This document shows, one piece after another, positions 15 to 11,954 of a stretch of 11,954 nt of DNA. A program made the position numbers and the translations under genes. The DNA comes from Chthoniobacterales bacterium. GTDB taxonomy: Bacteria; Verrucomicrobiota; Verrucomicrobiia; Chthoniobacterales; Chthoniobacteraceae. Location: NCBI GenBank assembly GCA_038207335.1, contig JBBQZX010000046.1, forward strand, positions 1 to 11,954, written 5' to 3'. Every line of letters begins with the position of its first letter. Position 1 is the first letter of the stretch. Under the pieces are notes generated by a model, which did no database searches, had not been told where the DNA came from, and saw only the letters and a program-made list of their open reading frames with translations.

Positions 15-164
15 TATTAGCCGGGGGTAACACCCCCGGAATGCCGATACAAAAACGGATGCACCCCGGCAGGGGTGCGGGAAATTGCGCGCCGCTTCCG
101 GCACCCCTGCCGGGGTGCGCGCAAATGTGGGACACGAATCCGGGGGTGTTACCCCCGGCTAATA
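15..164. repeat. 150-bp symmetric array of four palindromic units (A-B-B'-A') upstream of the recombinase
   Basis: 15-40 (TATTAGCCGGGGGTAACACCCCCGGA) is the exact reverse complement of 139-164. 61-78 (GCACCCCGGCAGGGGTGC) is the exact reverse complement of 101-118. Both pairs and the central GCGCGC (87-92) share the axis 89/90, and each unit is itself a hairpin. Confidence 0.92.
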
Positions 165-172
165 AATCAGCA

Positions 173-201
173 TTTACTACCCATGATTTGGCTGGTATCA
201 T
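173..201 (+). promoter_or_regulatory. Putative sigma70-type promoter with extended -10 for the recombinase
   Basis: TTTACT (173-178), a 17-nt spacer, then TATCAT (196-201) preceded by TG at 193-194. It ends 7 nt before the in-frame GTG at 209. Confidence 0.55.
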
Positions 202-208
202 TTGCTTC

Positions 209-1792
209 GTGCCAAAGACATCTACGCAGCTCTCACCCGGCGAACAGCCCGCAAGGAACGCGCACTCAACCCGCAAGCCAAAGGCATACTCCTATCTGCG
301 CTTCTCGACGGCGGACCAGATTCGCGGCGACTCCTTTCGGCGACAAACTGAGCTGGCGCGGACGTGGTGCGAGAGAACGGGCGTCCCGCTGGTCGACAAC
401 TATCGGGATCTCGGGGTTTCGGCATTCCGTGGCGCAAATGCCGACAAAGGAGCGCTGAAAGCGTTTCTGGACAGGGTTGAGAGCGAAGTGATCGAGCCGG
501 GCTCCTATCTGATCGTGGAGAGTCTGGATCGTCTCTCTCGCACCGACATCACTTTTGCGCTCCAGATGTTTTTGGGGCTGATCAACGCAGGGATCGTCGT
601 CGTCACGCTCGCCGATCAGCGGGTTTATGATCGCGAGCGCATCAACGATGGCAATTTCACGGACATCATCATCAGCCTGACGATTCTGAGCCGGGCGAAT
701 GAAGAGAGCCGGATCAAATCGAGTCGCCTCTGTGCGGCGTGGGCAAACAAACGCGAGCGAGCCGGTCAGGAGAAATTGACCGCGCGCTGTCCGGCATGGC
801 TGCGCATGAAGCCGGATCGGACCGGCTTTGAGTTGATCCCGGAAAAAGCCCCAGTCGTGCGCCGCATTTTTGAAATGGCTGCCGCCGGGAAGGGCCAAAA
901 CCATATCGCGCGAGTCTTTGGACGCGAGCAGATCCCCTGCTTCTCCAATGGGGCTCGCTGGTACAGTTCGACGATCAGGGTGATCCTGCACAGCCGGGCG
1001 GTCATCGGAGAGTATCAGCCGAGTAAAATGGTCAGCGGCAAGCGCCAGTTCCTCGAGGGCGTGCCGGATTATTTCCCGGCCGCCGTGCCGATGGATTTGT
1101 TCGCCGCCGTCCAGCGCATGCAGCGGGTGCGCCCGTCCTACCGTGGGCGCGGTCAGACGAATCCAATCGCGGGCCTCACTTACAACGTGATGACCGGCAA
1201 CAAGATGATGCGGGTTTCCAAGGGCAAGGCGAAGAAGTGGACTTACTTGCTCGATGCCGCCGCGCCAACTGGCGGTGCTCCTTACGTGAGTTGGCAGTTC
1301 GAGCAGTTCTTGAAGACCCTTCTGACGGTCTGCGAGACGATCACCACGGCCCCAGCGGCTCCGCAAAAACAGAACACCGAATTGCTCGCCGCTCTTAAGC
1401 GCATCGATGAGATGGAAATCCAGATTCCGCGTCTCGTGGAGTTCGTGGCGACGGGATTTTCGGCTTCCGTGGATCAGAAACTCCGCGAACTGGAAAAGGA
1501 GAAGGATGTGCTGGAAAAGCACATCGCCGAGATGCAATCCGATGAGAAAGCGGCAGACATCGACGTTGGGAGGATCGACTGGCAAGACACGGAGAGGCTC
1601 AAGGAAAATGCGCGAGCCGTCATCCGTCGGGTCGACGTCCATCCGGTCGAACGCTGGTTCAAGGTCACCACGTTCGATGGCCGAGAGGTGATCTACCGGG
1701 AGGATGGCGACGAGATCGAGATCGTATCCTCAGAAACGCCAGCATTGCTAAAGAGAGACGCGATGCCAGCAGCGGGTCGCTCCAAACAATAG
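209..1792 (+). CDS. Large serine recombinase/integrase (resolvase catalytic domain, recombinase domain, degenerate zinc ribbon, coiled coil)
   Basis: Catalytic motif AYSYLRFSTADQIRGDSFRRQ, followed by YRDLGVSAF, LIVESLDRLSR, the E-helix RANEESRIKSSR, and recombinase-domain VVRRIFEM...IARVF...WYSSTIRVILHSRAVIG...YFPAAV. The ORF is open from 41, but codons in 41-208 run through the palindrome array, so GTG 209 is the likelier start. Confidence 0.93.
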   Translation: MPKTSTQLSPGEQPARNAHSTRKPKAYSYLRFSTADQIRGDSFRRQTELARTWCERTGVPLVDNYRDLGVSAFRGANADKGALKAFLDRVESEVIEPGSYLIVESLDRLSRTDITFALQMFLGLINAGIVVVTLADQRVYDRERINDGNFTDIIISLTILSRANEESRIKSSRLCAAWANKRERAGQEKLTARCPAWLRMKPDRTGFELIPEKAPVVRRIFEMAAAGKGQNHIARVFGREQIPCFSNGARWYSSTIRVILHSRAVIGEYQPSKMVSGKRQFLEGVPDYFPAAVPMDLFAAVQRMQRVRPSYRGRGQTNPIAGLTYNVMTGNKMMRVSKGKAKKWTYLLDAAAPTGGAPYVSWQFEQFLKTLLTVCETITTAPAAPQKQNTELLAALKRIDEMEIQIPRLVEFVATGFSASVDQKLRELEKEKDVLEKHIAEMQSDEKAADIDVGRIDWQDTERLKENARAVIRRVDVHPVERWFKVTTFDGREVIYREDGDEIEIVSSETPALLKRDAMPAAGRSKQ

Positions 1793-1820: not shown

Positions 1821-2180
1821 TCAGGGGAGCGGACGCCGCTCCAGCCGCTCCAACACCTTGTCCATGACGAGCAGCACCTTCTCAGTGACGACGAGCATCT
1901 TGGAGTGGTCGCCTTCCATGTAGGAGATGAGCTTGTTGGTTGCGTCGGCGTTCACACTGCGCTGGCTTTCGAGCTGATTGAGCATCCAGCGGACAATGAA
2001 GGACCAGCTCGCGATTGAAATTGCGGCCAGCGCGAGGAACCAATAGGCGATGTTTTTGCTGGCGAGATAATCGATTTCCGACTCGAACGGAATTGCGCCG
2101 GTCGCCACGCCAACCGCACCGAGAGCAACGCTGGGAAGAACGGCAACGAGTAGGATGGCAAGAGTGAGACGTATCTTCAT
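1821..2180 (-). CDS. Small membrane protein, holin-like (signal/TM segment, second TM, coiled coil)
   Basis: 119 aa. Hydrophobic N-terminus MKIRLTLAILLVAVLPSVALG, a second TM IAYWFLALAAISIASWSFIVRWML, then an amphipathic coiled coil reminiscent of BhlA/UviB-type holins. Last gene of the module, preceded by the TTGACG-N13-ATG motif. Confidence 0.55.
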   Translation of the reverse strand: MKIRLTLAILLVAVLPSVALGAVGVATGAIPFESEIDYLASKNIAYWFLALAAISIASWSFIVRWMLNQLESQRSVNADATNKLISYMEGDHSKMLVVTEKVLLVMDKVLERLERRPLP

Positions 2181-2181
2181 C

Positions 2182-2874
2182 TTACTGCACGCACGTCAAA
2201 TTCTCGTCCTCGCAAAACGGTGGCAGAAGGTGGCGGAACCAGCACTGAGACCCATCGGAAAAATAGTTGCTGTAACAAGTGTCTGTGAGGTCGGAATACT
2301 CGACGGCCTGCCAGGCGAGATTGGGGTGAGCGGCGTAGGTCGGAATGATCCCGTGAAGGCTGGAGAGAAGCACATCACTGTGCAGTTCACCGACGGTGCC
2401 CTTGGCACCACCCCGCATCGAAGCTCTCACGACAGCGTAGTAGTTGCGGCGCACGGCAAAGGCGTGCCCATCGAGTGCGCGACTAACCCGGAAGAGGCCG
2501 GGCGCGACTGCCTCCGGTGTCTCGATGTGCTGGCAACCGAAATAGAAGATGCTCCAATCATCGGGCATCGTGAGTGCCTCGACCCGATCGAGGAACTCGG
2601 GATGGAAAACGGCATCGTCCTCGAAGATGAGCACGGCCTCGGCATTGCGGCGTTCGGCCTCGCGAAGGATGAGACGTTTGCCGAGCGCGAGCGAGCGTTT
2701 GCGGACGTCGAGAAAGCCGCGGGGGTCGCCGCGGAGTGAGTTGGCGTCCACGCCCTTGAACCATTCGGCATCGAGGTTTGCCGCCGCGAATCTCGGCAGA
2801 AACCGCTCACGTCGGTCGGTGCGTGATTCAAGGCTGATGAACACGCGGAACGGAAAGGTCGCCCGGATGTCCAC
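2182..2874 (-). CDS. Glycosyltransferase family 25 (Lex2B/LgtB-like)
   Basis: GT25 N-terminal signature FISLESRTDRRERF...WFKGVD, the acidic motif VLIFEDDAVF, and DWSIFYFG. Its GTG start lies 3 nt after the upstream stop. Confidence 0.85.
   Translation of the reverse strand: MDIRATFPFRVFISLESRTDRRERFLPRFAAANLDAEWFKGVDANSLRGDPRGFLDVRKRSLALGKRLILREAERRNAEAVLIFEDDAVFHPEFLDRVEALTMPDDWSIFYFGCQHIETPEAVAPGLFRVSRALDGHAFAVRRNYYAVVRASMRGGAKGTVGELHSDVLLSSLHGIIPTYAAHPNLAWQAVEYSDLTDTCYSNYFSDGSQCWFRHLLPPFCEDENLTCVQ
2194..2200 (-). promoter_or_regulatory. TTTGACG motif 13 nt upstream of the holin-like ATG
   Basis: Minus strand reads TTTGACG TGCGTGCAGTAAG ATG(2180). Confidence 0.65.
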
Positions 2875-2877
2875 GGT

Positions 2878-3627
2878 TCAGCCGAAATTCACGCGCACCC
2901 GCACGTTCGCGCAGGGTTGGCCGGCGTTGGCGATGGACTTTTCGCCGGCGAGCGTAACTGCGGCGATCCGGCGACTGATGGCGAGACTGCTTGTCTTGTC
3001 TTTTGCGCCTTCGGCGAAGACGCGCTCGCAGTCGCCGTGGCGGCGAAACGCGGCGAAGTTGTCCGGCGTCATGACGACCTCAAGTCCCGCGGCCTCGGCG
3101 CGCAGCAAGAGGTCATTGTCCTCCCAACCCCAGGATCGGATCCGCTCGTCGTAGCCCCCGAGCGCGAGCCAGTCTGATTTGCGCAATGCGATTCGGCCGA
3201 AGCCGCCGCCGCACGTAAGAGGGCTCATGCTGGTGATGCGGCGGCCGTCCCTCGTGAAGACCTCGCGAAGCCATGCGGAAAAGCCCGGCAAGACCCAATT
3301 GTCGGCGTCGAGATTGCAAACAACCGGAAGGCGCGCACAGAAGTGGGCGATGTTCTTCGCGCGCGTCGGATGCCACGGCTGCGGACCTTCATCGAGCTGC
3401 ACGAAACGCAGCCGGCCCGCGCGGATTTCGGGCGTCAGTTCCGCCCGGACCCAGTCCGCCAATCCGTCCTGAGAATCGTAGTCGAGCAGGACAATTTCAT
3501 CGCCGGGCAGCAGGCTTTCGAGCGTGCGGGGAAGCGACTCGCGAAGGTGGTGCAGTCGGCCCTTGCAGGTCGTGCAAAAGCTGATGCCCGGTCGGTTCGG
3601 CGGAGGAATGGGAGCTGGCGTATTCAC
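2878..3627 (-). CDS. Glycosyltransferase family 2 with GT7 C-terminal-like motif
   Basis: ISFCTTCKGRLHHL, EIVLLDYDSQDG, RAKNIA, the DxD motif NLDADN, and the GGYDERIRSWGWEDNDL motif typical of Glyco_transf_7C. Confidence 0.88.
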   Translation of the reverse strand: MNTPAPIPPPNRPGISFCTTCKGRLHHLRESLPRTLESLLPGDEIVLLDYDSQDGLADWVRAELTPEIRAGRLRFVQLDEGPQPWHPTRAKNIAHFCARLPVVCNLDADNWVLPGFSAWLREVFTRDGRRITSMSPLTCGGGFGRIALRKSDWLALGGYDERIRSWGWEDNDLLLRAEAAGLEVVMTPDNFAAFRRHGDCERVFAEGAKDKTSSLAISRRIAAVTLAGEKSIANAGQPCANVRVRVNFG

Positions 3628-4456
3628 AGCCGCCGCGAGGTGTCAAAGCCTCGACCTGCGGCCACATCGCGAGGAAGCGTGCGTAGGCTTCCGGGAAGTC
3701 GTGGGCGAGCCGCTGCTCGGCGCGAGCGATCAGTTCAGGGTCACGTTTTGCGCCGCCGGTGAGATGCGCATATCCCGCTTTGGCAATCTGCTTCCGCGTG
3801 GGATGCAGCGGCAAAAGCGTGCCCACCTCCACGCCGACGCGCTGCGCAAAAACGCCGAGCTGATACTGCTCGACGAGCATCGAAGTCGTGGTGCCGTTGA
3901 GCGGGCTGTCGCGAAACTTTTGCGCGAGCTCGAGGCCCGCCCACGCGTAAGCGCGCACGAGTGCGACGTCATGGCCGCCGAGCAGTCCGCCGTTGAATGC
4001 GGGCGCCCCGTGCGGGAAGCCGGCGATCCGCTGAGCCGCAAGCATGTCGGGCGAAGTGTAGTAATGGGCGTAATCCGGCGACTGGGCGATCAGGCGGAAT
4101 CGCTCGACCCGTTTTGGCAACGGTTTGAAGATGAGTACGTCGCCGTCGAACTGCACAAACGGCTGCTCCTGGACAGCACATGCGAGAAGTTTTCCGAGCG
4201 CCCAAATGTGCGTGAGCCCATCGGTCGGCCAGCTTTCGAGCGCCGTTGAAATGTTCGTAAATGGCCAGCCGAAAAGCTTCGCAATGGCTGCGCCGCGAAT
4301 GTCGGTGACGAATTCCGTTTCCTCGAAGGCGCGCGCTGCGAGGCATGTTGCCAGCGTCTGAATCAACATCGGACCTCGATGCACGCTGAACATCGGCGTC
4401 TTCGTCCAAAGGCTCATGACGCCACGGAGGCATCGGCAGATACGAGGTGGCAACAT
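3497..4456 (-). CDS. DUF6734-like putative nucleotide-diphospho-sugar transferase (GT-A-like)
   Basis: Motif order SLWTK...FVTDIRG...WALGKLLA...EQPFVQFDGDVLIF...FNGGLLGG...LVEQYQL matches DUF6734 proteins as recalled (no search run), including a DxD (DGD) motif. The last ~43 codons overlap the GT2 gene. Confidence 0.7.
   Translation of the reverse strand: MLPPRICRCLRGVMSLWTKTPMFSVHRGPMLIQTLATCLAARAFEETEFVTDIRGAAIAKLFGWPFTNISTALESWPTDGLTHIWALGKLLACAVQEQPFVQFDGDVLIFKPLPKRVERFRLIAQSPDYAHYYTSPDMLAAQRIAGFPHGAPAFNGGLLGGHDVALVRAYAWAGLELAQKFRDSPLNGTTTSMLVEQYQLGVFAQRVGVEVGTLLPLHPTRKQIAKAGYAHLTGGAKRDPELIARAEQRLAHDFPEAYARFLAMWPQVEALTPRGGCEYASSHSSAEPTGHQLLHDLQGPTAPPSRVASPHARKPAARR
3641..3647 (-). promoter_or_regulatory. 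TTTGACA motif 13 nt upstream of the GT2 GTG
   Basis: Minus strand reads TTTGACA CCTCGCGGCGGCT GTG(3627). Confidence 0.65.
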
Positions 4457-4469
4457 TCCGCTCTCGCGC

Positions 4470-4476
4470 TGTCAAA
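4470..4476 (-). promoter_or_regulatory. TTTGACA motif 13 nt upstream of the DUF6734-like ATG
   Basis: Minus strand reads TTTGACA GCGCGAGAGCGGA ATG(4456). Confidence 0.65.
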
Positions 4477-4481
4477 GCGGG

Positions 4482-4955
4482 TCAGATGAGAAAGCTGCCT
4501 AGCGCCGGTGCTGGCACGAAGAGCGGGGTTAGAGGCGTTGCGCGGACGTAGCCATCGATGGGTGCAAAGTGTGAGATTGCAGCAAGTTCAATCAACGCTG
4601 GCGCGCCATTGATTGAAGAGAGGATCGCGCCACGCGGGAACCGGCAGACCGGCAAGCGATCCACGTTGAGCCACCGCACGCAGTAGTGGAATGGATGGGT
4701 GTAAGGCAGCGTCTGCGGATCGCGCATCCGCACAGCTCGGCCGGCCGCATCGGCGAGCGCACGTGCAAATGGCACTGCCATTTTGGAAGGCAGCAACAGC
4801 AGCTCGATAGCTTCGCCAGCCATCGACGTCCTCCGCGCATCGCTGCCAGTCAGGCCCACCGTGCCGATCGAAAACGTCCGCGCGAGCCGCGAGATCAAGG
4901 CGCAGAGCTGATCAGGGGCCTGTTTCAGTTCCGCGCTTTTGTGTGGTGCAGCCAT
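4482..4955 (-). CDS. Hypothetical protein with a degenerate minimal nucleotidyltransferase (MNT/PolB)-like N-terminal domain
   Basis: LARTFSIGTVGLTGSDARRTSMAGEAIELLLL...ALADAAGRAVRM resembles the MNT consensus (GLFGSxARG...SDIDLLV...LGRxVD). The ORF is open to 5030; ATG 4955 is preferred because it reduces the overlap with the upstream gene. Confidence 0.5.
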   Translation of the reverse strand: MAAPHKSAELKQAPDQLCALISRLARTFSIGTVGLTGSDARRTSMAGEAIELLLLPSKMAVPFARALADAAGRAVRMRDPQTLPYTHPFHYCVRWLNVDRLPVCRFPRGAILSSINGAPALIELAAISHFAPIDGYVRATPLTPLFVPAPALGSFLI

Positions 4956-6018
4956 GGAGGTCGGTTTGGGTGGTCGTCGATCCGTCGTAGACGATGCCGA
5001 GCTTGTGCGGCTCGACGTTGCTGATCCCACCTTGCGCGCTGACCTGGCAGGTTACTGAGCCGGGCGCATCGACGTGCAGCTTGACCGTCGTGGTCTGTCC
5101 GTCGGGAACGGACGTCGTGAGCTGCGTGCGATTGCCCGGCGGATTGTAGTCCTTGCCGTAAACGATCCCGATCTCCGTGCCCGGCTCCGGGTTGATCGCA
5201 TACTTGCGCGTCACTGTGTAGCTATCGGAGAAATCCCAGCCGGTTTCCGTGCTCTCGGATCCCTGTGGCGGACAACGATGAGAATCTTCCTCGTCACCGG
5301 TCCATGTGAAGGCGGTCTTGATGCAGTCCTTCACGTCGCACGTCTTCTCGCCGGAGCCGGTCCACGCATGGATGCCGTCGCCTGCGGAAGCCGTTGCCGT
5401 CGCGGTAACGACCTGCCCCGCGCTGACTTTGCCGGTGAACGAGAATCCCTGCGTCCCGCCAGGAGCGAGGGCGCCGAGCTTGGTTTTTCCAAAGCAGGTC
5501 ACCGAGATCGTCGCGACCTTCAGTTTGCCGTCGCCCGGATCTGGCACCGTCACATTCACAAGCGCAGTGCAAGGACGTGGCGATTCAATGAAGCAGCCCG
5601 GCCCATCGATGTTGGGATCAAGATCGACGGTCACGAGCGGAGTGTAATCGCCCCAAGGCACCCGCTTCCTCGGCGGCTTCGGCGAATGCGGACCACCTCC
5701 TCCGCCACTGCCGCCGCCCGAAATGCCCCAACTTCCCGAGCCGCCGCTGTCGCTGCCGCCTCCGCCTGAGCTGCCGCCGCCGGAACCGATCCCGCCATCG
5801 CTGCTACCGGTGCCATCGGAATTGCCGCCGCCGCCGCCGCTCCCACCTGAGCCATTGCCGCCATCGCCCGGCGGATTACTTCCACCGTCACCGCCGCCGG
5901 GCGGATCGATCACTGGCGGCTGGCATGTTGTTTGGGCGCGGGAGTCAACGTTGTCAGGAAATCCGTCATGCAAGCCCCCGTCTCCGACGTAAGTCGTTGA
6001 TGGAGAGGCTGTGGAAAG
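4912..6018 (-). CDS. Gly/Ser-rich, Cys-containing putative virion/tail protein with beta-sandwich-like C-terminus; 5' end uncertain or truncated
   Basis: Protein-like from about 6018 downward: a Gly/Ser linker, then Thr/Val/Gly-rich beta-strand patterns, with 9 Cys in total. The 6019-6342 part of the 476-aa ORF is an off-frame shadow of the upstream gene. A TTG at 5973 is a possible alternative start. Confidence 0.62.
   Translation of the reverse strand, partial: LSTASPSTTYVGDGGLHDGFPDNVDSRAQTTCQPPVIDPPGGGDGGSNPPGDGGNGSGGSGGGGGNSDGTGSSDGGIGSGGGSSGGGGSDSGGSGSWGISGGGSGGGGGPHSPKPPRKRVPWGDYTPLVTVDLDPNIDGPGCFIESPRPCTALVNVTVPDPGDGKLKVATISVTCFGKTKLGALAPGGTQGFSFTGKVSAGQVVTATATASAGDGIHAWTGSGEKTCDVKDCIKTAFTWTGDEEDSHRCPPQGSESTETGWDFSDSYTVTRKYAINPEPGTEIGIVYGKDYNPPGNRTQLTTSVPDGQTTTVKLHVDAPGSVTCQVSAQGGISNVEPHKLGIVYDGSTTTQTDLHGCTTQKRGTETGP
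5692..5898 (-). repeat. Low-complexity Gly/Ser tract (~69 codons)
   Basis: Encodes GGGDGGSNPPGDGGNGSGGSGGGGGNSDGTGSSDGGIGSGGGSSGGGGSDSGGSGSWGISGGGSGGGGG; appears as (CCG)n runs on the + strand. Confidence 0.9.
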
Positions 6019-6659
6019 TATTCCTCGGTGATCTCCACGGCGTTGCCCTTGCGCTTGATCTTCGGTGCCATCTTCAGCCAGGTCCGCTTCTTGGCCGCGC
6101 CGGGTATCTTGAACTGCTCGATACCCGGTGGCTTGTCCACGATTGTGCCGATGCCACGGAGGATCGAAGGTGGGATGGTCTTTGCCGCGTAGGTCTTGCG
6201 GAACACCGCGCCGACAACCAGCCAGTTGTCCACGCCGAACATCGGGTTCTTCTTCGGCTTTTTGCCGCTGCCGCTGAGTGCGGTCTGCTGGGCGCTCGAC
6301 TCGGGCAACGTCTCCGCGAATTGCTCCTTTGCTGCGTCCCACGCGTAGCGAGTTTTGAGCGTGTCGAAGAACGGATGCGTCTGAATCGGATCTTCGGCCA
6401 TCGAAGTATCCAGTTCGAACGTCACTTGGTCGTCCTTGGGCTCGTCGCTCAGACCCTCAAAGTGCAGCGTCACCTTGAAGCTGCCGTCGTCTTCCTGCGC
6501 GAAGGATCGCGAACGATACGGAATGCCGATGCCGAGATTCGGCAGCACGCTCAGCGCGTCCGCGAGTGTCTCGACGAACATCGGAACCTCGATGGTTGCG
6601 ACGCCCGTTTCGGAAATGCCGCCGGTGATCCCGGTCGTTGGAAGTGGAGCAGTGCTCAT
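5910..6659 (-). CDS. Phage tail-associated hypothetical protein following the tape measure gene (distal-tail position); C-terminus possibly disrupted
   Basis: ATGA overlap with the tape measure stop (6656-6659). Globular, GC3-rich sequence up to EITEEY (~6018), after which codon usage in this frame degrades. Confidence 0.68.
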   Translation of the reverse strand: MSTAPLPTTGITGGISETGVATIEVPMFVETLADALSVLPNLGIGIPYRSRSFAQEDDGSFKVTLHFEGLSDEPKDDQVTFELDTSMAEDPIQTHPFFDTLKTRYAWDAAKEQFAETLPESSAQQTALSGSGKKPKKNPMFGVDNWLVVGAVFRKTYAAKTIPPSILRGIGTIVDKPPGIEQFKIPGAAKKRTWLKMAPKIKRKGNAVEITEEYFPQPLHQRLTSETGACMTDFLTTLTPAPKQHASRQ

Positions 6660-8254
6660 GCGAAGACGGGGCTGAGTGTGGCGTTGCCTGCCGTGGGCTT
6701 GTTTTCGATGGCGCGCTTCACGTCGCGCAGGAGGCCGCTCTGCGTCGTCAGTTCCCGCGTCTGGCGCTGTTGCTCGCGGAGCATGGGATCGCCATTGCTG
6801 TAAGCCGCACCGCCGCCGCCGATGCGCTGGATGGCCGAGATCGCGGACTTCTTGCCTTTGTTCGTATCCTCCTCGGGGTCAAGCAGAGGGCCGCTTGGTT
6901 TGGTTGGCTTCGTGGCGTCGAGTGATTGCTGCGAAACGATCTGCACACGGCTCATCACCGAGGCCACCGCGTCGCCGAGGTGTTGCTCCCAATCGCTCGT
7001 TTCGATCAGGGAATTGCCTTTATCAAAGCCCGCGCTCAATGCCGTGCCGATGTTGCTGAAGGCGTCGCGCATCCGACTCGCCGCCTTGTCGAACGATGGG
7101 CCAAGCAAGTCACCGCCGGAGTCGCGATTATCCTGACCGGACTCGCGCACCGTCTGCGCCAGACCCTGCATCTCCGCGGCACCCTGGCCGATTTTCTCGC
7201 CGATCAGCGGAATGCCGGAGAGGTAATCGAGTAGCTTCGCAATCCCATCGAGCAGGAACGCGATGAAGCCTTGTGCGATCCCCATCATGGCCTTGCCCAT
7301 CCCAATCCAAAAGTCCGCGGTCGTGAGAATCTGAAAGAGCGTGATCGCGTTCTTGATCGACTCGGCCAACGCCTGCCAGAGCGCCTGGGCCACGGCCATG
7401 AGCGCGCCCGCGAGGAAGTTCACGGCATTGGCGAAGGCGATTTTCGCCGAGGTCAAAAGGATGTCGCCGACTTTCCCATCGGAGAATGCCTGGACGATAA
7501 ACGCCACGGCTTCACCTGCCTGCTGGCCCCACTTCGCGAGATCGAGATTGGCGAAGCGGTCGATCAACGGCTTGAGAACGGGCGCGACCTTGTCTGCCAG
7601 CCCAATCCAGAATCCGCGGACCTTGACCCCGGTGAGTGCGAGCTTGTCGCTGATGTCATCGAAGAGGTTGGCATCGCGTTGAAGCAAGGCCGCCTGCGAT
7701 CCAACCTGCGCCGCCGCGTCGCCAAACCCATCACCGGCGAAAAGCGCCAGCAATTCCGCGCCGCTGCGGCCAAATAGTTGCATCGACAAAGCGGCGCGTT
7801 CGGAGGGATCGCGGACGTTGTTAATCGCTTTGCCGAGCGTGCGGAACTGCTCGGCAGGCGTCTTCGCCTTCAGCTCTTCGAGTTTGATCCCGAGCTTATC
7901 CACTGTGTCGGCGGCGGAATCCCCATGCAGCGACTTCGCCATCTTCGCAAGCACCGGCCCGACGTCCTCCGCCGTCTTGCCCGCGTTGGCGAACTCCTGT
8001 TGTAAGACGACGAGATCGCCCACGGCCACGCCGGTATTGGCCGAACGATCGCTGAGCTCCCCACCTAAATCGAGCGCCTGGCGGAAATGATCGAAGCCTG
8101 CCGTTACAACTCCCGCCGCCGCGCGGATGGCAATGAACGCTGCCGCGAACTTTGCGATGCGCGACTGCAGCGCGAGCATCTTGCCATTGATGCGCGCTAG
8201 CGCACTGCTCAGGCGGCTGTCGTCGGCATCGAATACGGCGGTGGCTTTCGGCAT
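6656..8254 (-). CDS. Phage tail tape measure protein-like
   Basis: 532 aa, Ala/Gly/Leu-rich and helical. Contains TMP-type segments GGELSDRSANTGVAVGDL, LGIKLEELKAKTPAEQF and ERAALSMQLFGRSGAELL, a long amphipathic mid-section, and C-terminal IQRIGGGG...QQRQTREL. Confidence 0.85.
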   Translation of the reverse strand: MPKATAVFDADDSRLSSALARINGKMLALQSRIAKFAAAFIAIRAAAGVVTAGFDHFRQALDLGGELSDRSANTGVAVGDLVVLQQEFANAGKTAEDVGPVLAKMAKSLHGDSAADTVDKLGIKLEELKAKTPAEQFRTLGKAINNVRDPSERAALSMQLFGRSGAELLALFAGDGFGDAAAQVGSQAALLQRDANLFDDISDKLALTGVKVRGFWIGLADKVAPVLKPLIDRFANLDLAKWGQQAGEAVAFIVQAFSDGKVGDILLTSAKIAFANAVNFLAGALMAVAQALWQALAESIKNAITLFQILTTADFWIGMGKAMMGIAQGFIAFLLDGIAKLLDYLSGIPLIGEKIGQGAAEMQGLAQTVRESGQDNRDSGGDLLGPSFDKAASRMRDAFSNIGTALSAGFDKGNSLIETSDWEQHLGDAVASVMSRVQIVSQQSLDATKPTKPSGPLLDPEEDTNKGKKSAISAIQRIGGGGAAYSNGDPMLREQQRQTRELTTQSGLLRDVKRAIENKPTAGNATLSPVFA

Positions 8255-8268
8255 CGACGGACGCGCGC

Positions 8269-8274
8269 CGTCAA
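8269..8274 (-). promoter_or_regulatory. TTGACG motif 14 nt upstream of the tape measure ATG
   Basis: Minus strand reads TTGACG GCGCGCGTCCGTCG ATG(8254). Confidence 0.6.
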
Positions 8275-8445: not shown

Positions 8446-10791
8446 TCAAGGCTCGGCGTGTTGCCGGACTTCATGCGGCGTGAGTTCCGCATTGTTTGCG
8501 CGGTCGGTGGACTGCGCGACGTAGCGACCATCGGCAGGGGCGTCGAGCGTGAGGGTCCAGTCCGCAATGCCTGCTTCTTGCGTGATGATCGTTGCGGGGT
8601 GGCCATTGACGGTGATGGTCGCGATCTCGCCGTTGTCGTGCGAGACGCCGCGCACGATTCGCTTGGCATCTTCGCTGGTGATGCTGGTGATCAAGGTTGC
8701 GGGCGGCAGGTCATCCACGGGTGCGAGGAGTTCGGGGAACGAAATGCGTTTGACCTCGGCGGCGCGCGCCTCGGGGCCGGTCCAGTCGGCGATGCTGCGA
8801 TAGGCTCCGTCGTTGATGATTTGCGGGAGCTTCATGCTCGCCACTCGCGTCGTCGCGCCGGGCGCGGGTGTGTCGTGAAAGTAATAGCTCACGGGATGAT
8901 CCAGCTTCTCCGTGCGCGGGCCGCCGCCGAAGTCCACGACGTTGCCGCCTGACTTGCTGTTGGTGATTGTTATGCAGCGAAAGTGTCCGGTGAGATCGGC
9001 TTTTCGCGCGATGCCGGTGAGTTGGATGAACGGGTCGCGTTCGAGACGGCAGTTAGTAAACGTGAGGCGGTCATACGAAAAATCGCCATACGGCAGGCTC
9101 TCCTCGTCATGGCCGCCGTTGAGCGGCTCGGCGGTGATGTGGTCGAGCGTGATGTCGCGATAGACGTGCGCATCGTAGTCGGGGTGGTAGATGCCAAAGG
9201 CCGCGTTCTGCGCGCGCAGTCCGTCGAGCAGGAAGAACTGCACATTGGGCCGGATGACATAATGCGACTGCCATGCGCGCAGGTTGCGGACGATGAACGG
9301 ATGCGCGCGGTCGCCATGCACCGAGCCGTGCGTCTCGTCGCCGAAGCGAAAATCGAACAAGCCTTCGCTGTGCGATTCGTTGTCCTCGAAGCGCAGGAAC
9401 GGCAGCGTGCGCACATCGCGCTCGGCGACCTGGCCGTCAGGTCCGCGCAGGCGCAGCATGGGATTGAAGTCCGCGGTCTTAATGATCTGAAAGTGGTAGC
9501 CGTAGTGATCGTTTTCACACGCGACATTGCGGGTGAAAGTGTTCCGCGCGTTCGCCCACCAGAAGCCCGCGCCGTCGTTGGGATCGAACGTGCGCACCTG
9601 CTTCGGCAAGGGCACGCTGCCAAAGGCCTGCACGGCGAGATTGCGATCCAGCACGTTCCATTGCTCCGTCGCGTCCTCGAGGAAGAAGCCGTGGCCGCGC
9701 GACTGGTAGCCCACGCAATCGCGCACCAGCAGATGGTCGGTGCCGTGGATGGTGACCCAGCGGTTTTGCGAATCCCAGATGCTCGCGCCGAGCACGCCGC
9801 TCCCGCGCATGGTGCTGCGCACAAGATGAAAATGGATCGGATATTTGCCGAGCACGCCGTCTTTTCCCAAATGCCGGAACTCCGCGTAACTAATGCCGCC
9901 CGCGGAGTCGCGATGATACATGGTATGGCCGCGCACGCCGGCGGGTTCGGCGGACTCGATGACGACGTTGCGCGAGAGATTGGCGACCTCGCAGCGCATC
10001 AATCCTTCGCCATGATGCGCTTTGCCGAGGGCGCGATCCAGCGTGAGCGCTGCGCCTTCGATGGCCGTGATCACGCGCTCTTCAGTGCCCACCGGCTTCT
10101 GTCGGCCAAACGGCACTTTTTTTTGAAAGCTAGTCCCAGACTCAATCGTCGGCGCGTCGCCGCTGGTGATGATGACGCGGTCACCGACGTGCCAGTCGCT
10201 CACGGGTTGCTCCAGGGTGACGCGCGCATCGCCCACCCTGGCCGGTGCGGCGAGCTTGAGCCAGGTGCGGCTCATTGGCGCGCCATGCGCCTCCCAGCCT
10301 CCGCCGCAGGCGATAATGGCGGGCAGCGTCTCCGGGTTCGTGCCTTTGAAATGACGCAGCCGGATCGTCGCCTTCACGCCGTATGGAATCGGCGAGGCTG
10401 GCGTGCCGATTTCCAGCACCGGCATCGCGCCGCTCGCAGGCAGCGCGGGTGCTTCATCATGGCAGTTGAAGTCGTCTTCTGTCGTGGTGTCGCCCGGCTC
10501 GATCTTGATGAGCCCCACATCGAGCAGCGTGTTTTTTTCCCGCGAGAAAGTGAGCGTGCCGGCGACGTGCAGCAGCCGCAGCGCGGCGCTGGAATCCACA
10601 TCATAGGTGACGACGTGCCCTGCGCGCACCTGCACAAAATCACCCGCCTGCGGCTGGCGCCCGCCTTCCCACGTCTGCGCGTCGGACCACTTGCCGCCAT
10701 GCGCGGTGCGGGCATTGAAGACTACGGGTTCCGCTGCGGCCATCGCGGCGGTGAGCGCAAAAGCGCAGAGAAGTGTCAGGTTGAATTTCAT
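8446..10791 (-). CDS. Secreted G8-domain protein with CEMIP/TMEM2/fibrocystin-like parallel beta-helix and C-terminal Ig-like domain
   Basis: Signal peptide MKFNLTLLCAFALTAAMAAA. G8 N-terminus GKWSDAQTWEGGRQPQAGDFVQVRAGHVVTYD, then WHVGDRVIITS, EVANLSRNVVI, LGKYPIHFHL, RWVTIHGT and GHGFFLED. C-terminal DDLPPATLIT...VRGVSHDNGEIATITVNG...STDRANN. Confidence 0.88.
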   Translation of the reverse strand: MKFNLTLLCAFALTAAMAAAEPVVFNARTAHGGKWSDAQTWEGGRQPQAGDFVQVRAGHVVTYDVDSSAALRLLHVAGTLTFSREKNTLLDVGLIKIEPGDTTTEDDFNCHDEAPALPASGAMPVLEIGTPASPIPYGVKATIRLRHFKGTNPETLPAIIACGGGWEAHGAPMSRTWLKLAAPARVGDARVTLEQPVSDWHVGDRVIITSGDAPTIESGTSFQKKVPFGRQKPVGTEERVITAIEGAALTLDRALGKAHHGEGLMRCEVANLSRNVVIESAEPAGVRGHTMYHRDSAGGISYAEFRHLGKDGVLGKYPIHFHLVRSTMRGSGVLGASIWDSQNRWVTIHGTDHLLVRDCVGYQSRGHGFFLEDATEQWNVLDRNLAVQAFGSVPLPKQVRTFDPNDGAGFWWANARNTFTRNVACENDHYGYHFQIIKTADFNPMLRLRGPDGQVAERDVRTLPFLRFEDNESHSEGLFDFRFGDETHGSVHGDRAHPFIVRNLRAWQSHYVIRPNVQFFLLDGLRAQNAAFGIYHPDYDAHVYRDITLDHITAEPLNGGHDEESLPYGDFSYDRLTFTNCRLERDPFIQLTGIARKADLTGHFRCITITNSKSGGNVVDFGGGPRTEKLDHPVSYYFHDTPAPGATTRVASMKLPQIINDGAYRSIADWTGPEARAAEVKRISFPELLAPVDDLPPATLITSITSEDAKRIVRGVSHDNGEIATITVNGHPATIITQEAGIADWTLTLDAPADGRYVAQSTDRANNAELTPHEVRQHAEP

Positions 10792-10838
10792 CGTGGTTAG
10801 CTGTCGGTTTCGGTTGGAAAATGCAGCGCGCGGGCGAG

Positions 10839-11750
10839 TTAGCTTGTTTTCGCCACGCCGATTTGAACTTCGAGGACGACCTCCTCCACCTTGCGCACCG
10901 TCACAATCGTCCCTTCCTTGGCAGCTTTCAAAGTTGCAGCCCCTGCCGGCCGATAGGCACCACCATCAATGCTTTCGACGATCGAAACGTGGTCGGCGAT
11001 CCGCAGGTTGATTAGCCTCTCATATTCATTGGCGGCCAATGAAGTGACACCTTTCCCGCGCATCCGAAGGATGCCGTCTTTGAAGGAGACAAACGAGCCG
11101 CGCACCGTCCCTCGGCTTTGCCCGATGTAACGTTCGATCTGTCGCTTCGACGCGCCGAGTTGGATGACCTCGATCGTGTCGGGATCGTATTCGCTGCGGG
11201 CGGTGAGGAGCGTGCCTTGCTTGGCCTTCTTCAAAACCTCCCCGGCTGGGCCTGCATGTTTGTAGTCACCGCCGTCGATGCTTTCGAGCACAGGAATGGC
11301 CGGGTCGATCGTCAGCGAGACATTGCCTGCCGGTTTCTGGACAAATCCCGGCGGGACATCGGCGGCGAGGAGATTCAGTTTCCCGTTGCGGTAGGATTCA
11401 AACGTGCCAATGACGCGATGATCCAAGCCGAAGATGATTTCGTGATCCGCGACACTCACCCGAAACACTGTTCCGGGAGCCACGCGGCTCAAGGCATCGG
11501 CGGTATCCACCACCTTGGAACCGGGGCCGCTTTCATTATTCTCGAAGGTCTGGTAGTTCGCGCCGATGTGCTCGAAGATAATCGGGCCGGACTTGCCCTT
11601 GAGCGTCAGCGTCCCGTCCCTAAACGACACGAACGAGCCGCTGGCCGCCTGCTCCTTCGGTTCGGACTTGTCCGCCGCGAAAATCGCAGTCGTGAACAGC
11701 AGCGCACAAGTTAAAGTCAGGATGGTTTTCATGGCGTTGCGTGAAGTCAT
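10839..11750 (-). CDS. Secreted hypothetical protein with three internal repeats (OB-fold/DUF5666-like by inference)
   Basis: ATG 11750 overlaps the upstream stop (ATGA); ATG 11732 is an alternative start. Signal peptide MKTILTLTCALLFTTAIFA. Repeats GSFVSFRDGTLTL / GTFESYRNGKLNL / GSFVSFKDGILRM, and ESIDGG twice. Confidence 0.8.
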   Translation of the reverse strand: MTSRNAMKTILTLTCALLFTTAIFAADKSEPKEQAASGSFVSFRDGTLTLKGKSGPIIFEHIGANYQTFENNESGPGSKVVDTADALSRVAPGTVFRVSVADHEIIFGLDHRVIGTFESYRNGKLNLLAADVPPGFVQKPAGNVSLTIDPAIPVLESIDGGDYKHAGPAGEVLKKAKQGTLLTARSEYDPDTIEVIQLGASKRQIERYIGQSRGTVRGSFVSFKDGILRMRGKGVTSLAANEYERLINLRIADHVSIVESIDGGAYRPAGAATLKAAKEGTIVTVRKVEEVVLEVQIGVAKTS

Positions 11751-11953
11751 TTCAGGTCCTTCAGCGCTGAGATCGTCAACGGCTCGGCGGGATCGATGAT
11801 GAACCATTGCGGCAGTGCGCGGTCGAGCGTGACAAAGACGTCGTCGAAGCTGCCCTTCGGTGCCTTCTCGATGGAGAGGCACCAAAAGCCCGCCCACTCG
11901 CCGCCAGTCTGCGCGGGTGTGATGGTCGCGCGGGCGATCCGCTCGGTCTGCGT
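11747..11953 (-). CDS. 3' end of a hypothetical protein (runs off the window edge)
   Basis: Open GC3-rich frame TQTERIARATITPAQTGGEWAGFWCLSIEKAPKGSFDDVFVTLDRALPQWFIIDPAEPLTISALKDLK-stop; its TGA overlaps the next ATG. Confidence 0.75.
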   Translation of the reverse strand, partial: TQTERIARATITPAQTGGEWAGFWCLSIEKAPKGSFDDVFVTLDRALPQWFIIDPAEPLTISALKDLK

Positions 11954-11954
11954 G

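Follow-up and report, generated by a model that had tools for sequence, protein, structure and literature searches.

The window analysed here, 11,954 nt long, is the entire contig C46 of a Chthoniobacterales genome (GCA_038207335.1, hereafter G000). It holds a serine recombinase gene, a minus-strand block of phage late genes and two non-phage genes, and is a decayed prophage remnant. Four of the late genes carry the hexamer TTGACR, which we call the box, 13 or 14 nt before the start codon (N13 or N14), and the same box recurs at this spacing across a family of related phages, downstream of the gene for a small protein with a helix-turn-helix (HTH). Judged from these sequence patterns, the box is probably a compact single-box promoter at positions -19 to -14, with the RNA predicted to begin at the start codon or very slightly ahead of it. 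Its activity would require the HTH protein, termed the factor below.

Position and sequence of the box

A preliminary description made from the window sequence alone had reported boxes at N13, N13, N13 and N14 before ATG 2180, GTG 3627, ATG 4456 and ATG 8254, three of them as TTTGAC, and had judged this unlikely to be chance. The four are there as described, the TTTGAC forms being those before 2180, 3627 and 4456, and they make up four of the five minus-strand TTGACR copies; the word is scarce in the window, with six occurrences in all against 12.1 expected from shuffles. Finding at least four of five TTGACR at N13 or N14 of the nine gene starts has a chance p of 2.6e-11, which becomes 2.1e-6 after a crude correction (40 offsets, all hexamers) and is 6.1e-6 when any ATG or GTG opening 45 codons is counted as a start. 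A further minus-strand site, TTGACT-N16-ATG (5943-5948), is part of another element's integrase promoter scrap. Two late genes without a box are translationally coupled, also as first described, one by an ATGA overlap at 6659 and the other by a 3-nt gap at 2874.

The positional enrichment in related phages that had been put forward as a check is present across the family. In 75 IMG/VR loci chosen by protein (terminase) and not by motif, the best 80 of 361 matches having been kept, TTGACA stands at N13 from an ATG or GTG in 116 of 248 distinct sites, at N14 in 42, at N15-17 in 24 and at N12 in none; TTGACG is at N13 in 52 of 295. Fourteen tail-tube-selected loci gave TTGACA at N13 in 36/88, and 80 loci picked by one box pattern, with the seed removed, gave it at N13-16 in 125/263. 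The 526 box sites are spread over 96 protein families; at N13 the sixth base is A in 62%, G in 29% and T in 9%, and the inverted box has no N13 peak (1/342). The box is not confined to late genes, being found also before excisionase-like genes and, as TTGACT, before integrase genes. It is not a feature of the host genes, which had been noted to lack it in the window: TTGACR is at N13 in 7 of the 3,735 called G000 genes. A host-wide signal is ruled out, with only 0-23 occurrences of TTGACA-N13-ATG per genome in 61 genomes.

The N13 spacer has a GC content of 76%. Neither a -10 box nor a clear Shine-Dalgarno (SD) sequence had been seen in the window, and both absences extend to the family: only one spacer in 118 contains TA...T and 15 have A at -11, and SD-like words are not commoner in box genes (13/57) than in box-less ones (93/380). 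No other promoter signal was seen upstream, a second -35 (TTG[AC]C) being present in 2/118 only. The logo has no conserved bases at -33 to -21 or at -13 to -4; the sigma54 consensus has GG at -24 and GC at -12, and a sigma54 promoter was rejected on this ground. The sole other conserved part of the signal is GGC before the start purine, with G-3, G-2 and C-1 at 70, 79 and 77% in 57 N13 ATG genes versus 28, 17 and 36% in 380 box-less phage genes. This ending contains Y-1 R+1 Y+2 (Y, pyrimidine; R, purine), which PMC12641261 gives as a conserved bacterial start element.

Counting at most two rows per family pair, the box precedes 61 of the 63 late genes whose upstream neighbour is on the opposite strand. 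By intergenic gap, it precedes 32/46 late genes after gaps of >50 nt, 34/54 after 11-50 nt, and 3/70 after gaps of at most 10 nt (coupled genes). Among 1,561 operon-head genes of G000, TA...T peaks 6 and 9 nt before the ATG and TTG[AC]C at 29-34 nt; these host peaks look like leaderless and short-leader sigma70 starts, which the N13 and N16 box classes would parallel.

A co-occurring helix-turn-helix protein

The factor was discovered by clustering 3,753 proteins from the loci (profiles A4, A5 and A10). Its members are 150-210 aa long with a putative sigma4-like HTH; the family has no curated Pfam or PHROG assignment, matched no Ltr or Ogr Pfam family and had no match among 50,697 GenBank phage records, while its profile matches 2,402 cluster representatives at E<=1e-3. 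PHROG sigma profiles match 1 of 11 members each, and Sigma70_r2 matches none of the 11 at E<=0.1. In the structural model (predicted local distance difference test score 88.6) the HTH spans residues 88-159 and resembles those of sigma4/LuxR type; the best fold match is WhiG region 4 (Z 6.2, root-mean-square deviation 2.5, 63 aligned), tied with LuxR- and ArsR-type HTHs. Residues 1-87, which the short members lack, were barely probed by the fold search. Foldseek against the PDB returned nothing at E<=0.001, and a viral structure library only uncharacterised phage proteins. In the Atlas the matches were viral clusters without a name, and sigma4 clusters came in only at 0.77. The family has a conserved tail, PSRxMRSxxARxxY. 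The L044 linker resembles sigma3.2 by eye, but comparing profiles did not bear this out. When the factor was modelled in complex with host RpoB 32-518 (A6) and RpoC 8-335 (A7), the score was 0.54; two controls with replaced partners scored 0.00 and one with the RpoB chain replaced scored 0.70, above the real complex, and the prediction speaks neither for nor against binding.

The factor gene usually lies at the end of the replication cluster, just ahead of the first box. It follows primase/helicase in temperate and small phages (L044, L124, L150, L290/L289, L295), with exceptions in G033, where it follows the terminase, and in G136-type prophages, where it follows tail genes; in satellites it follows a boxed excisionase-like gene. 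Satellite-like elements (L040:586-5748, L043:9685-15185, L297 and G000 C32) carry an integrase, an excisionase-like gene, a short factor homologue and a primase-polymerase, and their boxing of the excisionase-like gene suggests activation by a helper-phage factor, as in P2/P4. The sole factor copy detected in G000 (C32) is split across two frames.

Box and factor were compared in both directions. Among 79 viral loci selected by the factor, the sequence continues for 5 kb or more beyond the factor gene in 59; 51 of these 59 carry the box, versus 7 of 59 at control offsets 22-26. The box starts immediately after the factor gene, often inside its 3' end, and upstream of the gene TTGACA is at N13-15 in only 5/81. 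Early-region peaks seen upstream of the factor gene in L384-L462 (TTGACA at N18, 12/81; TTGACG at N17, 19/279) are probably one or two gene families. Among the relatives, the profile matches 10/61; of eight elements examined, seven are boxed and the eighth ends 226 nt downstream. In the phylum sample it matches 37 of 301 genomes, and ten of the 14 strong-match regions are boxed, the other four comprising one without late genes, one that ends and two with a variant box. In reverse, the factor was found at E<=4e-19 in 8/10 records drawn from the 80 box-selected loci. In G017, the C18 prophage has factor and box and the C1 prophage has neither in the stretch examined; the N13 peak is absent around distant tail-gene matches in G017 C1, G040 and G054.

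Two natural controls bear on the pairing. The cultured phage P8625 has a terminase of the same family (23.5% identity) and no detected factor (best E 0.1). Its TTGACA lies at N30 before gp08, gp15, gp22 and gp31, i.e. 17 nt further out, at the normal sigma70 distance, and is followed by a -10-like box; among the carriers are a tail-fibre gene and the gene that precedes the portal. In the N30 promoters of gp08, gp15 and gp22 (L506), GTATC is shared by the spacers and two have GATAC near the start; these words are a possible operator.

The second control is a set of prophages (G136, G262 and G265) with a divergent factor, having the putative recognition helix HKAAISR and an altered conserved tail, and with no TTGACR peak (4/230 at N13-16). 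They have GCAACG at N13, 14, 13 and 13, each spacer ending in GT directly before ATG, for genes ahead of the portal, ahead of the capsid gene, after the capsid gene and at the tail-tube position. Hidden Markov model comparison with box genes gave E 0.018, 3.3e-5, 7.6e-8 and 0.006, that is, two clear homologues and two weak ones. In G136 alone GCAACG is the top hexamer (4/16, p 1.3e-4), a value that fails correction for 4,096 words; what carries the case is the set of four equivalent genes. Ten weak-match regions were scanned de novo for hexamers and yielded no late-gene box. One of them, L503 (G347:C1:4810001-4830000), has a strong peak near a weak factor match (E ~1e-5 to 1e-8), where ATCCCC lies 13-14 nt before the start in 9/31; it could be a repeat or a further box variant.

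The remnant in the window

The window carries the following features.

41..1792, plus strand: serine recombinase/integrase gene, without a box (PF00239, PF07508, phrog_95)
1821..2180, minus strand: hydrophobic 119-aa protein gene, last of the late block; kept together with its box in C10, L027 and L028
2194..2199, minus strand: box TTGACG, N13 to ATG 2180, within the final codons of the GT25 gene
2182..2874, minus strand: GT25 glycosyltransferase gene (PF01755), 3-nt gap to the preceding gene, no box in the window
2878..3627, minus strand: GT2/GT7C-like glycosyltransferase gene (PF02709, PF00535)
3641..3646, minus strand: box TTGACA, N13 to GTG 3627, inside the DUF6734 frame
3497..4456, minus strand: DUF6734 gene (PF20508, E 1.5e-29)
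4470..4475, minus strand: box TTGACA, N13 to ATG 4456; identical site in the G000 C10 copy
4912..5915, minus strand: glycine-rich reading frame with no start of its own, left behind after a junction
5910..6659, minus strand: tail-region gene, coupled by ATGA overlap, no box
5920..6015, minus strand: satellite-type scrap of ~95 bp (element end, integrase upstream region, first codons)
5943..5948, minus strand: TTGACT, N16 to the vestigial integrase ATG 5926 (N15 in intact copies)
6656..8254, minus strand: gene for the tape measure protein, first of the remnant late block (phrog_9483, E 5.7e-15)
8269..8274, minus strand: box TTGACG, N14 to ATG 8254 of the tape measure gene (N13/14 in orthologues)

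Two of the boxes (2199 in GT25, 3646 in DUF6734) fall within upstream coding frames. The GT25 gene, box-less here, has relatives that carry a box where uncoupled (L001:17323, L003:18347, L024:8248). Pfam and PHROG searches gave no family match for the 119-aa hydrophobic protein, which looks holin-like, or for the glycine-rich frame. Remnants of the same family elsewhere in G000 (C2, C6, C10, C32, C52) show the box signal. The labels of homologues (Chthoniobacteraceae, Luteolibacter) and the terminase match to phage P8625 suggest that the host is verrucomicrobial.

We take the tail gene to be truncated near 6015 because relatives align to aa 1-215 only. The scrap at 5920-6015 is wedged between this truncated gene and the start-less glycine-rich frame, aligns with the integrase starts of G031 C26, G031 C10 and G000 C32, and is either an excision scar or a misassembly. 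At 8446-11954, on the minus strand, a G8/CEMIP-domain gene and its neighbour occupy the cargo position of relatives, which in L002, L023, L029 and L031 lies between the tape measure gene and the gene preceding it; the two may be cargo instead of host flank. In L022-L031 (G031, G028), metal-resistance, efflux and DNA-repair cargo, in either orientation, separates the phage modules, every one of which restarts with a box of its own. Large tRNA arrays are inserted in L062:8285-12433 and L081:10981-14114 (~20 genes each) and in L133:245-1108.

Interpretation and comparison with known systems

In the mechanism that we propose, the HTH protein would be made late in the early programme and would recruit host RNA polymerase to each box. 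Each uncoupled late gene would then give its own leaderless or near-leaderless mRNA, starting at the start codon itself or 1-4 bases ahead of it; coupled genes would ride on the mRNA of a boxed gene. The preliminary description had offered a leaderless late promoter acting gene by gene, or else a non-SD translation-initiation element; the former gains indirect support, except that the box is not strictly late. Arguing for a promoter are the one-sided edge at N13, the Y-1 R+1 ending, the placement at 61/63 genes, the N30 version in P8625 and the restriction of the box to DNA downstream of the co-occurring HTH gene.

As to what reads the hexamer, we lean towards the factor's own sigma4-like HTH over a host sigma70 region 4 re-docked 17 bp closer. 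The GCAACG factor-box pair favours direct reading by the factor. In favour of the re-docked region 4 are the variability of the putative recognition helix and the exact match of the box to the -35 word. Much more tentatively, a widespread phage family might replace the host sigma with a sigma4-only mini-factor that grips TTGACA (or GCAACG) just upstream of the bubble. With the same doubt attached, RNA might start at the start codon itself, from a GC-rich promoter that has no -10, a bacterial initiation mode beside sigma70 and sigma54; factor and box would then be a naturally swappable pair.

If the box is a promoter, it tests the minimal needs for positioning and opening DNA, and the candidate factor, the natural variant GCAACG and the factor-less P8625 together make a two-component swap system. 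In a large group of uncultured phages (2,402 representatives) it would also set gene starts and the calling of late genes right, and it might supply an orthogonal expression switch to a phylum in which genetic tools are few.

Several observations weigh against the factor-dependent promoter. The counts overstate independence because the loci are kin, and the gene caller used here favoured box-supported starts. The window boxes match the family GGC ending poorly (pre-start bases gga, gct, aag, tcg), and host leaderless candidates show no G-2 preference (25% of 52). In the N16-17 sites (n=38) a YR step follows nt 13 in 13, nt 14 in 17 and nt 8 in 18, and the claim of a fixed start is equivocal for this class because the step after nt 8 is just as frequent. 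The fold match of the factor is middling, and its profile matches host sigma3-4 weakly (hhalign probability 28%, 32 columns). The putative recognition helix varies among TTGACA phages (TRAAVSK, SKQAFHY, TRQQFDK, TRATPHQ), and this sits uneasily with direct reading of a word that does not vary. The prophages with GCAACG are nearly identical and form a single lineage. Eight of the 59 factor loci have no box; in the two that were inspected, no late genes fell within the sequence examined. The two remaining records of the reverse test, boxed G359 (35.5 kb, CheckV 100%) and G361 (44%), gave no factor match, and nor did boxed G006, G014 and G038. Five boxes lie in the G005 C132 prophage, covered from integrase to tail, where the search for the factor gave just a look-alike (hhalign probability 0.7%), the clear factor copy of G005 being on a different contig.

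Such boxed elements without a detected factor (G359, G005 C132, G006, G014, G038) would be expected if the compact promoter were real and the HTH gene a hitchhiker, with another phage or host protein or a re-docked sigma70 doing the work. The variable helix, the identity of the word with the sigma70 -35 consensus and the kinship of all the carriers fit this too. We nevertheless think it rather unlikely: box and factor co-occur across temperate phages, small phages of 33-43 kb and satellites at factor identities of 17-47%, the box begins right behind the factor gene, both are missing from P8625, G017 C1, G040 and G054, and the two change jointly in G136-type prophages.

More unlikely than a hitchhiking gene is that UUGACA helps to initiate translation on long late mRNAs, acting via the ribosome or a phage RNA-binding protein and serving genes unable to couple translationally in an SD-poor host. 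A fixed distance to the start codon, an orientation-specific word, the near absence of boxes from coupled genes (3/70) and host starts that are mostly SD-poor would all suit it. The complementarity to 16S rRNA proposed as a check, however, gave no box complement in the ordinary tail (GAUCACCUCCUUU) of 5/5 relatives. The tail GATCACCTCCTTT contains neither TGTCAA nor CGTCAA in any of the five; TGTCAA is absent from four of the five complete 16S genes, and CGTCAA lies ~300 nt upstream of the tail in four of five (in G000 itself, a 16S gene was not found using exact motifs). The one-sided cut-off at N13, the lack of another upstream promoter signal (2/118) and the DNA-binding-type fold predicted for the co-occurring protein also speak against it. 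In L001, L004 and L026, which are three sequence types, the same word further stands 43-44 nt ahead of a tRNA-Met gene, where there is no start codon; two of the three have GGC followed by A at N13, although the word lies within a coding 3' end. The translation option of the preliminary description is weakened accordingly.

A single tRNA-Met(CAT) with an initiator-like 5' end lies among or beside boxed genes in many relatives, and such a phage tRNA could serve leaderless initiation. Its carriers are:

tRNA-Met(CAT): L001:6974, L004:9919, L026:14174, L077, L089, L091, L097, L102, L106, L110, L149, L155, L292

Slightly less probable still is a processing signal, with a nuclease cutting 13 nt downstream of UUGACA in long late transcripts to leave leaderless messages. 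This would account for the sharp edge, a GC-rich spacer that need not melt and the preference for GGC before a purine, but genes with an opposite-strand neighbour would still require a promoter, and none other was seen. The RNA around the box shows no conserved fold (mean z -0.23, 142 sites), and a conserved nuclease family did not stand out among the families in common, in which no search was aimed at nucleases. Chance or an open reading frame artefact is negligible: at N13 the TGA of TTGAC is an in-frame stop five codons upstream, able to fake starts, and the window has only five sites, but TTGACC, with the same TGA, has no peak (2/300 at N13), the frame-matched offsets N10, N19 and N22 hold 0, 1 and 4 of 248 TTGACA, and the sites span 96 families.

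No description of the box was found in open-access papers, and the main text of the P8625 paper contains neither 'promoter' nor 'TTGAC'. To our knowledge, no bacterial holoenzyme reads a lone hexamer at -19 to -14 without a -10 box. T4 late promoters consist of a single short box in many copies, AT-rich and at the -10 position, that is read via a small phage sigma-like protein (gp55/gp33), with gp55 being sigma2-like. The signal described here is likewise a single short repeated box with a candidate small phage sigma-like protein, but its box lies ahead of the bubble position, with a GC-rich spacer and a sigma4-like candidate.

A related late-activator system is Ogr of phage P2, together with delta of P4. 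The Ltr late activators RinA/ArpU bind repeats upstream of one terS promoter (PMC3753634). The factor gene, after primase/helicase, has the gene position of those activators; unlike in that account, a single hexamer here precedes many genes or blocks of each genome.

Leaderless starts make up about 10% in Akkermansia, according to PMC4782308. The leaderless sigma70 promoters of Verrucomicrobia (G000, P8625) have the same hexamer, identical to the -35 word TTGACA, and a predicted start at or near the start codon. In those promoters, however, the -35 lies ~29-30 nt from the start with a TANNNT-type -10 (an N28-34 layout in G000 and P8625), whereas here the box is at N13, TA...T occurs in 1/118 spacers, and the 17-bp spacer and the -10 consensus are missing.

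Thermus phage Lalka27a (bioRxiv 10.64898/2026.04.20.719267) has many late promoters, mostly leaderless transcripts and no phage RNA polymerase or sigma, and its authors infer a phage factor that alters host specificity. Many late promoters and leaderless transcripts, both putative here, would be common to the two systems. The -10 reported there is of TANNNT type (TAGGGT), 6 nt before the start, and here there is a lone N13 box with no -10 consensus; an AT-rich box ~6 nt before the start, of the T4 or Lalka27a type, is likewise absent (box at N13, spacer 76% GC). The defining features of the Lalka27a, leaderless sigma70, T4 gp55 and Ltr systems thus each appear to fail or remain undecided here, and what seems new is an unnamed HTH family apparently tied to the box, together with the putative GCAACG variant pair.

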